Origin: Rhodoluna sp.
GTDB taxonomy: Bacteria > Actinomycetota > Actinomycetes > Actinomycetales > Microbacteriaceae
Assembly: GCA_024645105.1 (NCBI GenBank)
Contig: JAHEGM010000003.1
Location: forward strand, 1-55,827
Direction: 5' to 3'
Length of the DNA stretch: 55,827 nt
The notes under the pieces were generated by a model, which searched no databases, was not told the DNA's origin, and was given only the letters and a program-made list of their open reading frames with translations. Shown piece by piece: positions 28,670 through 34,918 of this stretch (positions within the stretch are counted from its first letter, which is position 1; each line of letters begins with the position of its first letter). The position numbers and the translations under genes were made by a program.

Positions 28670-28755
28670 AGTAGCGATTTAGGCACTCTAATTGGGCCCT
28701 AGACCAATACGGGGCCAAAATGTTTGGTAATGTAGTCCAGTTGCTAAATCAACAT

Positions 28756-28831
28756 TCCTCGGTAGCTCAATTGGCAGAGCAATCGGCTGTTAACCGATAG
28801 GTTCTTGGTTCGAGTCCAAGCCGGGGAGCCA
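28756..28831 (+). tRNA. tRNA-Asn(GTT)
   Basis: TCCTCGG/CCGGGGA acceptor stem, ATCGG-CTGTTAA-CCGAT anticodon arm, GGTTCGAGTCC T arm, encoded CCA. Confidence 0.97.
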
Positions 28832-28858
28832 CTCTTTTTCAATGATCAGGAGGCCACG

Positions 28859-30130
28859 TTGATACGTTGGATCCAAGATCACAGATGGCTCTCTTCATCA
28901 CTCATTTCAGGTTTCGCGTTTCTGCTTTTCGGCGGGATTGACCTACTTGCACAGGGCTATAACGCCCTTATAGTCACCGCAATTCTTTCGGCAGCAATTG
29001 TCTTCGCAGCCACATTCGCTCAACTCAGTATCGTCTTGACAGTAATCGGCACCGTGCTTGAGATCTATTTAGGTCTCTCTCCCGTGATCGGCGGGCTAAG
29101 TGCAGCTATGGCCCTGTTCTTGACCGCAGCTTTTGCTTCGAGAATCTGGTATTCGATCACACTATCTGTGACGATTATTTCCGGGCTGGCAATAGCTTGG
29201 ACAAACACCTTTTTGCTGCCAATCAACAAAGACATCTATGGTCTTTTCTTGCCCACAGAAATGGCAAGGACTACGGCATTCGTCATACTCACTCTGGTTG
29301 TGATCGCAGGAAACATTCTCTTTTGGCTGCTTGGCCGACTTGCGATTACCTATGAGGTTTTCGTTGGTACCGAATTTGACCGCGCGCTCTCGGCCGAAAC
29401 TCAAGCCAAGCTGTCGCTTGAGGTTGCCGAGCAAAATGAACGCTTTGAGATTGCCAGAGATATCAACGAGCTGATTATTCAAAAGGTTACCGCGGTAATT
29501 TCACAAGCCGAGGGTGGCATTTATGCCGCGAAGGCCGATTTGAATTCCTCATTGCGTTCCCTTGAAAAAGTGGGCCTAAGCGCACGGGCAGCCCACGTTG
29601 AGCTAAGGCGTCTTTTTGACATGCTGAACAAGACGCACAGTATTTCAGCGGCGCCTCCAGGCATCGACGAGTTGGATGCTCTTGTGGTGACCTATCGCGA
29701 ATTTGGCTACAGCGTTTCGCTTTCGCACGAGGGGCCAAGATTCGCAATTTCAGAGGGTGCCAGCCTGGCTATTTATCGAATTGTTTTTGATGCATTGGAA
29801 AACGTCAAGAGGCACTGCATCGTTGGAACTGACGTATCGATTGATTTTTCTTGGGTAGCCGAGGGAATGCAAGTTTTGATAAAAGATAACGGCACAGAAT
29901 CTGAGCGTCGTTCCCAAGTGTCACTTGATGAAATATCTTCAGGCTACACAGCCGAGGATGACGTTAGAGCTTTGGTAGAAACTATCAAGGGAGCGGGAAT
30001 CACCGCCATGAAAGAGCGCGCCGCGCTTTATGGGGGCAGCATAGAAGCAACTAGAGTTCCGGGTGTTGGATTCACTGTTTCAGCAATCTTCCCGCACCTT
30101 CGAGCGCTTGCCGGGGTAGATCAAAAGTGA
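28859..30130 (+). CDS. Membrane sensor histidine kinase-like protein (HisKA_3/HATPase_c) lacking the H-box His
   Basis: About 6 TM segments; ERFEIARDINE H-box region, YRIVFDALENVKRH N-box, IKDNG, GAGITAMKERAALYGG; AGGAGG before TTG 28859. Confidence 0.85.
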   Translation: MIRWIQDHRWLSSSLISGFAFLLFGGIDLLAQGYNALIVTAILSAAIVFAATFAQLSIVLTVIGTVLEIYLGLSPVIGGLSAAMALFLTAAFASRIWYSITLSVTIISGLAIAWTNTFLLPINKDIYGLFLPTEMARTTAFVILTLVVIAGNILFWLLGRLAITYEVFVGTEFDRALSAETQAKLSLEVAEQNERFEIARDINELIIQKVTAVISQAEGGIYAAKADLNSSLRSLEKVGLSARAAHVELRRLFDMLNKTHSISAAPPGIDELDALVVTYREFGYSVSLSHEGPRFAISEGASLAIYRIVFDALENVKRHCIVGTDVSIDFSWVAEGMQVLIKDNGTESERRSQVSLDEISSGYTAEDDVRALVETIKGAGITAMKERAALYGGSIEATRVPGVGFTVSAIFPHLRALAGVDQK

Positions 30131-30801
30131 CTCAAGTTCTCAGAGTTGGTTTGATTGATGCCGATTCAGACATTCGATTCGGGCGAAGAATGTTGATTGA
30201 CTCTCAAGAGGACTGCAAAGTATTTTTTGAAGAAGATACTGCTGCCGGTGCGTTGCAAAGAGCACCTGAAGCATTGCTTGATGTTTTGGTTATCGATCAC
30301 CGTGTTAGAGGACTAGACGGCATTCAGTTGGTCGGCAAGCTTATTCCGCTTTACCAGGCAAATGATTCCGAGGTCCCGGCAATTATTCTGACCGGCCCAT
30401 ACTTCAGCTATGAGTTATTGCTGTCTTCTATTGCCGCCGGCGCAACCGATCTTGTCACTCTGGACTCAGATTCCGGTGAACTGCTGAAGTCAATCAGGTC
30501 TTCCTCGGCCAAAGAGGACTCGCTTGACTTTGACTCGCTCAAATCTTTGATGAACCGTGCCGGCGGCGCTGTCTTTGATGTGCCAGATATTTTGGTGAAG
30601 CTTGGTTCGCTAGAAGATCACGAGCCAGAAGTGTTAAACCAATTCAAGCTGGGTAAAGACGATGACCAGATTGCCGCCGAACTCGATCTGCCTAAGTATC
30701 GGGTTAGGCAATGCATGAAAGCTATTCTGGCTAAATGTGGCTTGGCAACCAGGGCGCAATTATTTCTAGCGGTCAATGCGGCGGACGGTAAAAATGGCTA
30801 A
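30127..30801 (+). CDS. Atypical NarL/LuxR family response regulator
   Basis: REC-like DVLVID..GLDG and AAGAT segments; LuxR-like QIAAELDL...ILAKCGLATRAQL; GTGA overlap with the kinase gene. Confidence 0.85.
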   Translation: MTQVLRVGLIDADSDIRFGRRMLIDSQEDCKVFFEEDTAAGALQRAPEALLDVLVIDHRVRGLDGIQLVGKLIPLYQANDSEVPAIILTGPYFSYELLLSSIAAGATDLVTLDSDSGELLKSIRSSSAKEDSLDFDSLKSLMNRAGGAVFDVPDILVKLGSLEDHEPEVLNQFKLGKDDDQIAAELDLPKYRVRQCMKAILAKCGLATRAQLFLAVNAADGKNG

Positions 30802-33406: not shown

Positions 33407-34918
33407 ATGAAGGCATTCACCTTGACCACTGCTTCAAGCTCTGCGGCTCAACGACCGCTGACAATTGTCCTTGGTTGTGACACCTTTCCGCCTGACATCA
33501 ACGGTGCCGCTCGCTTTGCTGAGCGTCTAGCAGCCGGTTTGGCAAGACACGGGCACGACGTGCACATCGTGGCATCGGCATATGACGACAGCCACGGCTC
33601 CTTCACTGAGATTCACGATGGTGAAGCCATGACAGTGCACCGAATCAAGAGCTTCCGCATTCCGCAGCATAAGACCCTGCGCTACGTTTGGCCGTTCACT
33701 TTGAAGCGCAAAACAGATCAAATTTTGCGCCAGGTAAAACCCGATGCCGTGCACATCCAGTCCCACCTAATCATGGGCCGCTACCTGGTCAAAAGTGCCA
33801 AGGAGCAGGGTATTCGCTTGTTGGCTACTAACCACATCATGCCTGAGAACCTAATCAAGTATTCGGTGATCATCCCCAAGTTCTTTGAGAAGACAGCCAT
33901 GAAAATGGCCTGGGCTGACGCGGGCCGTGTTTTGAAACAGGTAGATGCAATCACCACACCAACTCGTCGCGCTGCAAATCTGTTGGAAGAGGCCGCCGGG
34001 GTAGAGGGCGTACTTGCCATCAGCTGTGGCATTGATGCATCCAAGTTTGCCAATGCAACACCAACTTCAAATGCGGTTCCAAGAATTCTGTTTCTTGGGC
34101 GCCTAGATTACGAAAAGCACATTCACAATCTTCTGAAGGCTGTAGCGATGCTGCCTAAAAAGCTAAACACCCAAGTTGAAATCGTGGGTGACGGTGGTGA
34201 GCGTAAGCATCTAGAAGATTTGGCTCTCGAGCTTGGAATTTCAAAGCAGGTTAAGTTCCTTGGTCACATCACCGAGGAAGAGCTGCCTAAAGCCTACGAG
34301 CGCGCGACTCTCTTTGCGATGCCGTCTATCGCCGAACTGCAAAGTATTGCAACAATGGAGGCTATGGCCTCTGGCAGGCCCGTAGTTGCCGCCGACGCTA
34401 TGGCTTTGCCTCACCTGGTTCACGATGGCGACAACGGCTACCTGTTTCAGCCAGATGATGTTCAGGAATTTGCCGAGAAGCTAAAGAAGATTCTCACCGC
34501 CGATCAGGCCGAGCTTGATCGCCTCTCGGAGAACTCTTTGCACCTTATTCAGTCACACGATATCGAGCGCACCCTTACGATTTTCGAAGGGCTTTACCGT
34601 GGCGATCAGAATGCAGATACAACCTCTGACGACAACAGCGACACTTACACAAAGGCAATCGGCATCCTGCCAGAGCCACTGCACAATCGCGTGGTTGAGC
34701 TTCGTGAGCGGGCGCGTGCCCTTCGTGAGGCGGCAACGGAGCTGCGCGAAGAAGTTCGTGACGAAGTCAGAGAAAAGCTCGAGGACATTCGTGACGAGGT
34801 AGTCGAGCGCACCAAGGCGGTAAACACCAAGGTGAAGAAGACTGCAAAAAAGACTGCAAACCAGGCTAAGAAAGTTGTAAAGAACGCTGCAGAGCGTCTC
34901 AAAAACGACGAAGATTAG
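33407..34918 (+). CDS. Glycosyltransferase family 4 with C-terminal helical extension (start may be TTG 33422)
   Basis: DTFPPDINGAA, GRLDYEK and ELQSIATMEAMASG (Ex7E) motifs. Confidence 0.92.
   Translation: MKAFTLTTASSSAAQRPLTIVLGCDTFPPDINGAARFAERLAAGLARHGHDVHIVASAYDDSHGSFTEIHDGEAMTVHRIKSFRIPQHKTLRYVWPFTLKRKTDQILRQVKPDAVHIQSHLIMGRYLVKSAKEQGIRLLATNHIMPENLIKYSVIIPKFFEKTAMKMAWADAGRVLKQVDAITTPTRRAANLLEEAAGVEGVLAISCGIDASKFANATPTSNAVPRILFLGRLDYEKHIHNLLKAVAMLPKKLNTQVEIVGDGGERKHLEDLALELGISKQVKFLGHITEEELPKAYERATLFAMPSIAELQSIATMEAMASGRPVVAADAMALPHLVHDGDNGYLFQPDDVQEFAEKLKKILTADQAELDRLSENSLHLIQSHDIERTLTIFEGLYRGDQNADTTSDDNSDTYTKAIGILPEPLHNRVVELRERARALREAATELREEVRDEVREKLEDIRDEVVERTKAVNTKVKKTAKKTANQAKKVVKNAAERLKNDED

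Follow-up and report, generated by a model that had tools for sequence, protein, structure and literature searches.

The closest solved relative of the locus described here is the DesK/DesR pair of Bacillus subtilis, which likewise combines a multi-helix HisKA_3 sensor, with a Gln at H+5 in its DHp domain, and a NarL-type regulator. Unlike the pair described below, DesK keeps its phosphoacceptor His and DesR a full receiver pocket. As set out in the accessible text of a 2025 review, phosphotransfer requires the His, and receiver chemistry requires the residues DD, D, T and K (PMC12632262). DesK activates DesR D54A and D54N in a signal-dependent manner in vivo (PMC4251995, section 11 of the source), which shows that the closest solved family can work by docking alone. 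That phosphate-free mode belongs to engineered mutants; in the genus pair the chemistry is naturally and universally absent. Canonical actinobacterial pairs of a DUF7134-HisKA_3 kinase and a NarL-type regulator share the architecture and gene order of the locus, and these kinases are the nearest relatives of both the membrane domain and the kinase core, within and outside the family. They differ in that the His is kept in 7/7 kinases and the receiver pocket in 6/6 regulators, with no acidic lid signature.

Degenerate partners are known singly. PsmA and the ChrS frameshift variant have a kinase fold without kinase activity and act by protein contact (PMC12963549, PMC9491836, accessible text), as do the pseudokinases DivL and RocA; in the same texts, none of the four apparently shares an operon with a transcription factor of the pseudo-receiver type. 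The Streptomyces atypical response regulator WhiI lacks the Lys and one paired Asp, as does the regulator described here, but it is an orphan and works as a BldM heterodimer (PMC4125116, accessible text), whereas the genus regulator has a sensor of its own encoded beside it in every case. In the portion of the 2025 review available, 18 of 20 atypical regulators are orphans, the exceptions being CmrT and FrzS, and few HisKA_3 domains lack the His (56 of 16,025; PMC12632262). In the accessible full-text literature searched, which included the general review PMC12471899, neither an operon pairing a pseudokinase with a pseudo-receiver nor any mention of the present pair was found. The accessible text of the genus paper (PMC12422013) treats MtrAB only and leaves this pair unmentioned. 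Pseudokinases and pseudo-receivers are each known as kinds, and the operon described here pairs the two.

The window, the whole 55,827-nucleotide stretch of Rhodoluna sp. DNA that was analysed, has a GC content of about 50% and is, from labels given by inspection, what we take to be a housekeeping region (leuA, recO, glyS, dnaG, def and fab genes). Two full-length open reading frames joined by a GTGA overlap had been reported in the initial annotation, and both were recovered open and full length: the kinase-like frame at 28859-30130 (+; TTG start, 423 aa) and the regulator frame at 30127-30801 (+; GTG start, 224 aa), with the overlap at 30127-30130. The features of the locus were as follows.

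28725..28733, + strand: putative extended -10 promoter, TG-N-TAATGT, ahead of tRNA-Asn, read from the sequence
28756..28831, + strand: tRNA-Asn(GTT), constant upstream neighbour of the kinase-like gene across the family
28848..28853, + strand: ribosome binding site AGGAGG before the TTG start, with similar sites in genus loci
28859..30130, + strand: His-less HisKA_3 pseudokinase, 423 aa, with six predicted membrane helices (DUF7134-like), DHp and HATPase domain
29465..29467, + strand: N203 at the phosphoacceptor His position (AAC codon; HMM alignment to DesK)
29480..29482, + strand: Q208, counterpart of DesK phosphatase Gln193 (HMM alignment to DesK)
29894..29989, + strand: acidic ATP-lid insertion, orthogroup signature (Y363, D368, L372; alignments and column counts)
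30127..30801, + strand: atypical NarL/LuxR-type response regulator, 224 aa, predicted pseudo-receiver plus LuxR-type helix-turn-helix
30794..31797, + strand: azlC and azlD, members of the branched-chain amino acid export family, co-oriented with the regulator and overlapping its end

The tRNA-Asn gene lay upstream in 29/33 genus loci, the remaining four being cut short, and in 20/20 wider family loci. An element similar to the putative extended -10 recurred 5' of the tRNA in most genus loci compared; the element at 28725-28733 was absent from the promoter consensus-scan output. The tRNA-Asn promoter likely drives the tRNA together with the pair, since the gap between tRNA and start codon is 27 bases, no terminator is listed there and RNA-library contigs span the junction. 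These contigs, from relatives, extend from the tRNA into the kinase start, where DNA carry-over is possible. No conserved operator was seen by eye upstream of the operon among the genus loci. Downstream, azlC was found in 21/33 genus loci and def came next instead in 10; azlCD also stood behind family orthologues without the regulator. As azlC is present in only 21 of the 33, azlCD was rejected as an obligate target or part of the system. Elsewhere in the window, the frame at 33407-34918 is glycosyltransferase-like; its C-terminal tail is long, charged and probably coiled, and the syntenic family homologues are about 80 residues shorter.

A DHp and HATPase_c fold behind membrane helices was present in the kinase-like protein by Pfam, DesK alignment, AlphaFold2 and Foldseek. 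Pfam matched HisKA_3 (E 1.2e-3) and HATPase_c (E 1.6e-5), both under the cut-off; among 31 orthologues, HATPase_c was matched in 31, HisKA_3 in 30 and DUF7134 in 9 at E<=0.1. In the AlphaFold2 model (pLDDT 78.9), six helices at the N-terminus precede a long pair of DHp helices and a HATPase domain, and Foldseek returned kinases for this model, DesK among them. Among proteins of solved structure, DesK was also the one that the kinase profile matched best by sequence (E 3e-11). HMM alignment of the orthologue profile placed N203 (AAC, 29465-29467) on the DesK phospho-His, as first proposed, and Q208 on DesK Gln193. The N, D and first two Gly of the ATP boxes were retained, and the ATP lid contained an acidic insertion, conserved and about 25 residues long; these features, like Q208 and the receiver residues D57 and T89, had escaped the initial annotation. 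On these residues the protein is best described as a histidine pseudokinase, a kinase fold minus its catalytic residue and under selection, and it would fall outside the canonical HisKA_3 kinase class.

The regulator matched Response_reg (E 1e-7, over the cut-off) and GerE (E 0.028, under it). Its AlphaFold2 model (pLDDT 92.0) comprised a receiver and a four-helix domain, and Foldseek returned LiaR, NarL and DesR. Alignment of the regulator profile to DevR, NarL and VraR put A12 on the second acidic residue (DD2) and L112 on the conserved Lys, in agreement with the DA for DD and the Leu for Lys noted initially; D57 and T89 were retained. Lacking DD2 and K, the protein would be a pseudo-receiver, or atypical response regulator, as the accessible text of PMC12632262 defines one.

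The kinase-like gene was found in 171/183 genus genomes (0.7-1.6 Mb), nearly always in single copy, and in 46/46 near-complete ones (>=90% complete); named homologues at 59-75% identity were Rhodoluna sp., which makes Rhodoluna the likely genus. Of the 171 loci, 113 were examined, 33 from homologue searches and 80 picked for diversity. The regulator followed directly in 113/113. The His site was occupied by Asn in 66, Ser in 26, Thr in 20 and Ala in 1, with His in 0/113 and likewise in 0/121 rows of the protein-database set; DD2 was acidic in 0/113 and the Lys present in 0/112, one locus ending at a contig end. No intermediate with His or Lys occurred among the 113. Phosphotransfer between the two proteins thus appears chemically implausible, because a His is needed on the sensor and DD, D, T and K on the receiver, and both sides fail; canonical phosphotransfer would be lost, as had been proposed.

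The loss might reflect incipient pseudogenes or an assembly error, a reading we consider hardly credible. Low Pfam scores, the fast divergence of the regulator and the loss of its C-terminal domain in some lineages speak for it; the gene's presence in all 46 near-complete genomes, low dN/dS and confirmation of the codon speak against it. The AAC codon at 29465-29467 was unchanged in contigs of 4/4 DNA runs from four studies, taken from 14 runs that matched at half the words or more, and one RNA-library contig also covered it with no difference listed. In RNA runs, short contigs covered the kinase-like gene in 4/4 and the regulator in none; at this low depth such contigs indicate neither expression level nor absence, and DNA carry-over is possible. 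dN/dS was calculated by the Nei-Gojobori method with a custom script over 23 disjoint pairs (22 for the regulator) at dS 0.05-1.5. The kinase-like gene gave a median of 0.066 (maximum 0.16) and the regulator 0.11 (maximum 0.26). By part, medians were 0.033 for the DHp, 0.049 for the HATPase domain and 0.109 for the membrane part, and 0.112 for the receiver and 0.092 for the regulator's C-terminus. Among near-identical strains, 13/15 differences were synonymous. Sequencing error and decay are refuted by the DNA runs, the genome distribution and dN/dS. The double loss of phosphotransfer residues is confirmed as a genus-wide core trait; the initial view that it is not random decay therefore holds, with His and Lys absent across the genus at dN/dS far below 1.

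The pair's degeneracy is not general decay, since the other pairs of genome G000 are canonical: its 8 other whole regulators are so, with a ninth seen in part, and 6/6 whole kinases beside other regulators keep the His. A genome-wide habit of degenerate pairs was accordingly rejected. Directly behind one canonical regulator-kinase pair, G000:C26:13779-12805 (-) encodes a 325-residue membrane protein with a coiled segment and no H box, which may be a degenerate kinase-like accessory. The regulator diverged faster than core canonical regulators, at 71% vs 88-98% identity to G013 and 47-48% vs 82-96% to G168 and G243; the divergence rate of the kinase-like protein was inside the range of other membrane kinases.

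Within the ATP site, N315, D343, G345, G378 and R387 were invariant (113/113), and in the lid D368 was kept in 113, L372 in 111 and Y363 in 107. Some His-less GHKL kinases phosphorylate Ser or Thr, and the invariant residues would suit a HATPase domain with such other ATP chemistry, for instance Ser/Thr phosphorylation of the partner. This is very improbable: G380 of the ATP loop was lost in 46/113, the third loop Gly was Ala in 89/113, and no invariant Ser/Thr acceptor stood out in either protein.

The sensor might alternatively act as a phosphatase only, the regulator or another NarL-type regulator being phosphorylated by acetyl phosphate or cross-talk and dephosphorylated via Q208. HisKA_3 phosphatase activity requires the Gln and not the His (PMC5231405, PMC12632262, accessible text). 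The H+5 site was Gln in 86, Glu in 26 and Asp in 1 of 113, and the phospho-Asp site Asp in 79, Glu in 24 and another residue in 10, Q208 and D57 occurring together in 70. Against this, the metal-binding Asp and the Lys are, by the sequence test, gone in all members, D57 is replaced in 34/113 and Q208 in 27/113, and family one-helix forms have His, Leu or Gln at the site matching Q208; we regard the reading as improbable. Both Q208 and D57 were replaced, mostly by Glu, in 18/113 loci (L022-L025 and kin), probably one clade.

Other Microbacteriaceae have an orthologue at the same locus, behind tRNA-Asn and before azlCD and def, with the same acidic lid insertion but one membrane helix; the best 80 of 273 relatives were kept. 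The orthogroup (L034-L075, L199-L278; e.g. L063, 7051-5972 and 5968-5567, -) encodes a HisKA_3 kinase of about 295 residues whose C-terminal tail is conserved; in 35/97 loci a canonical stand-alone receiver comes next, and no description of this combination was seen in the literature. It thus differs from the genus form in its single helix, in having the His in 53/99 distinct rows, and in a receiver that is canonical without a DNA-binding domain (Lys 35/35, DD2 33/35) or absent. A stand-alone receiver followed 34/51 His-bearing vs 1/46 His-less rows, two rows lacking room. The counts fit a correlated loss of His and receiver, but the His state changed about five times, and the 5 independent pairs are too few to show a correlation (sign test p of 1). 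Matched loss, as initially proposed for the genus, and co-evolution of the losses are unsupported: the genus shows one ancestral event and no intermediates, and 45/46 His-less family rows have no receiver gene behind. In 9/17 wider family loci (L059-L066, L075) tRNA-Asn and the one-helix gene were separated by a canonical pair of kinase and regulator, frequently accompanied by a small gene; the pair had no obligate link to the one-helix gene. L279 (G085:C1), in a 1.4 Mb genome, is a very divergent orthologue without His, predicted membrane helix (open frame) or receiver behind.

A quick tree joined the genus and family forms (support 99, starred) and placed the genus as sister to all one-helix forms (support 85, unstarred; long branches may contribute), the joint clade nesting inside canonical multi-helix kinases. 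A quick receiver tree of 110 rows could not group genus receivers with stand-alone ones. Outside the family, 13/189 genomes matched at E<=1e-45, and all 7 fetched were canonical; no orthologue-level match was found in genomes G070, G308, G097 and G129, and the sequence-cluster atlas gave generic kinase clusters only. Fusion of the membrane part of a tRNA-adjacent canonical kinase to a one-helix gene was not supported. The N-terminal profile matched no tRNA-adjacent canonical kinase at E<=1 and 34 rows of another canonical subfamily, a test that is partly circular because those rows were chosen by likeness to the query. It is likely that a canonical pair was first fixed behind tRNA-Asn and that most genera then shed the sensor helices and DNA-binding domain, while this genus kept both and shed the chemistry, a history that lacks confirmation from the receiver tree.

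The kinase-like protein can persist without an adjacent partner, since 45/46 His-less family orthologues have no receiver gene behind. The pseudokinase may serve a third protein as accessory or scaffold: it could form heterodimers with another kinase, or act on a protein of the envelope or of polar growth, the receiver being an adaptor or tag-along and transcription secondary. Besides those receiver-less orthologues, the lid insertion common to all forms whatever the partner, the precedents ChrS pseudokinase, PsmA and DivL (PMC9491836, PMC12963549, accessible text) and a dispensable helix-turn-helix, absent from the family's stand-alone receivers, would fit this. The recognition helix was gapped in 27 rows, comprising 2 contig-end cuts, 22 eroded helices and 3 natural receiver-only genes, so that it was lost or eroded in 25/111 complete regulators. 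Nonetheless, the receiver is kept alongside in 113/113 under purifying selection, including loci with an eroded helix; G000 and four complete genomes yielded no further kinase of this subfamily; and no third conserved partner gene was linked to the pair in the genus and family neighbourhoods. We hold the scaffold role to be rather unlikely. In the receiver-only loci (L020, L322, L333) def follows directly, helix-turn-helix and azlCD being deleted, a state that parallels the stand-alone receivers of other Microbacteriaceae.

Docking and allostery alone, in a DesK/DesR-like manner, is the mode of action that we think somewhat probable. The residues that pass phosphate are lost in both proteins while both remain intact under purifying selection, so they likely signal by binding alone; sequestration or allostery had been inferred at the outset. 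Sensing of a membrane-level cue would fall to the six-helix domain, which would then shift the DHp dimer from one DesK-like state to another, any bound nucleotide being probably a structural ligand. The pseudo-receiver is predicted to dock through helix alpha1 on the DHp helix; one DHp state may hold the regulator at the membrane or mask its dimer face, and the other release or activate it. Output would likely be transcription via the LuxR helix-turn-helix in about three quarters of lineages.

The complex model scored 0.64 against 0.00 for the best of three controls, at a mark reached by 116/157 solved complexes and 2/215 mismatches, and may pass by likeness to solved DesK-DesR complexes. Runs agreed in >=95% of contacts (partner pLDDT >=84), with receiver helix 1 on DHp residues 207-226. 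Covariation at the predicted contacts was weak (mean z 0.53, with 1.9% of shifted patterns as high); positions 219/19 were G/G in 73 and A/A in 24 of 113, and none of the predicted contacts was among the 25 top covarying pairs. The predicted interface was no better conserved than the rest (kinase 0.58 vs 0.65 for other DHp positions; receiver 0.48 vs 0.45). R20 (window 30184-30186), inside the predicted interface, was Arg/Lys in 112/113 regulator orthologues at a helix-1 site where canonical relatives have a hydrophobic residue, and may serve a function specific to this family.

Several observations count against docking alone. The His-less, receiver-less one-helix orthologues imply that the protein does, or at least can, function independently of a partner. 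Erosion of the helix in 22 of the 111 regulators and absence of the C-terminal domain in 3 would sit poorly with it, as would the regulator's faster divergence and retention of G380 in just 67/113. That the pair is a natural, genus-defining two-component system without any phosphorylation, whose sensor controls its cognate transcription factor by signal-dependent docking, is a serious possibility that falls a little short of an even chance.

How bacterial pseudo-receivers switch is called a mystery in the accessible text of the 2025 review (PMC12632262). When a pseudo-receiver is invariably accompanied by a pseudokinase of its own, it has a direct candidate input, which makes the switching question testable. 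Parallel tests could draw on the family, in which a single gene occurs with its His, without a receiver and in doubly degenerate form. That the pair is retained as core genes in streamlined freshwater genomes of about 1.3 Mb indicates that its function matters. If the docking reading is true, the allosteric step of the DesR mutants would suffice for an entire natural pathway, and one orthogroup would have met two opposite fates, the chemistry kept with the sensor and DNA-binding domains shed, or the reverse.
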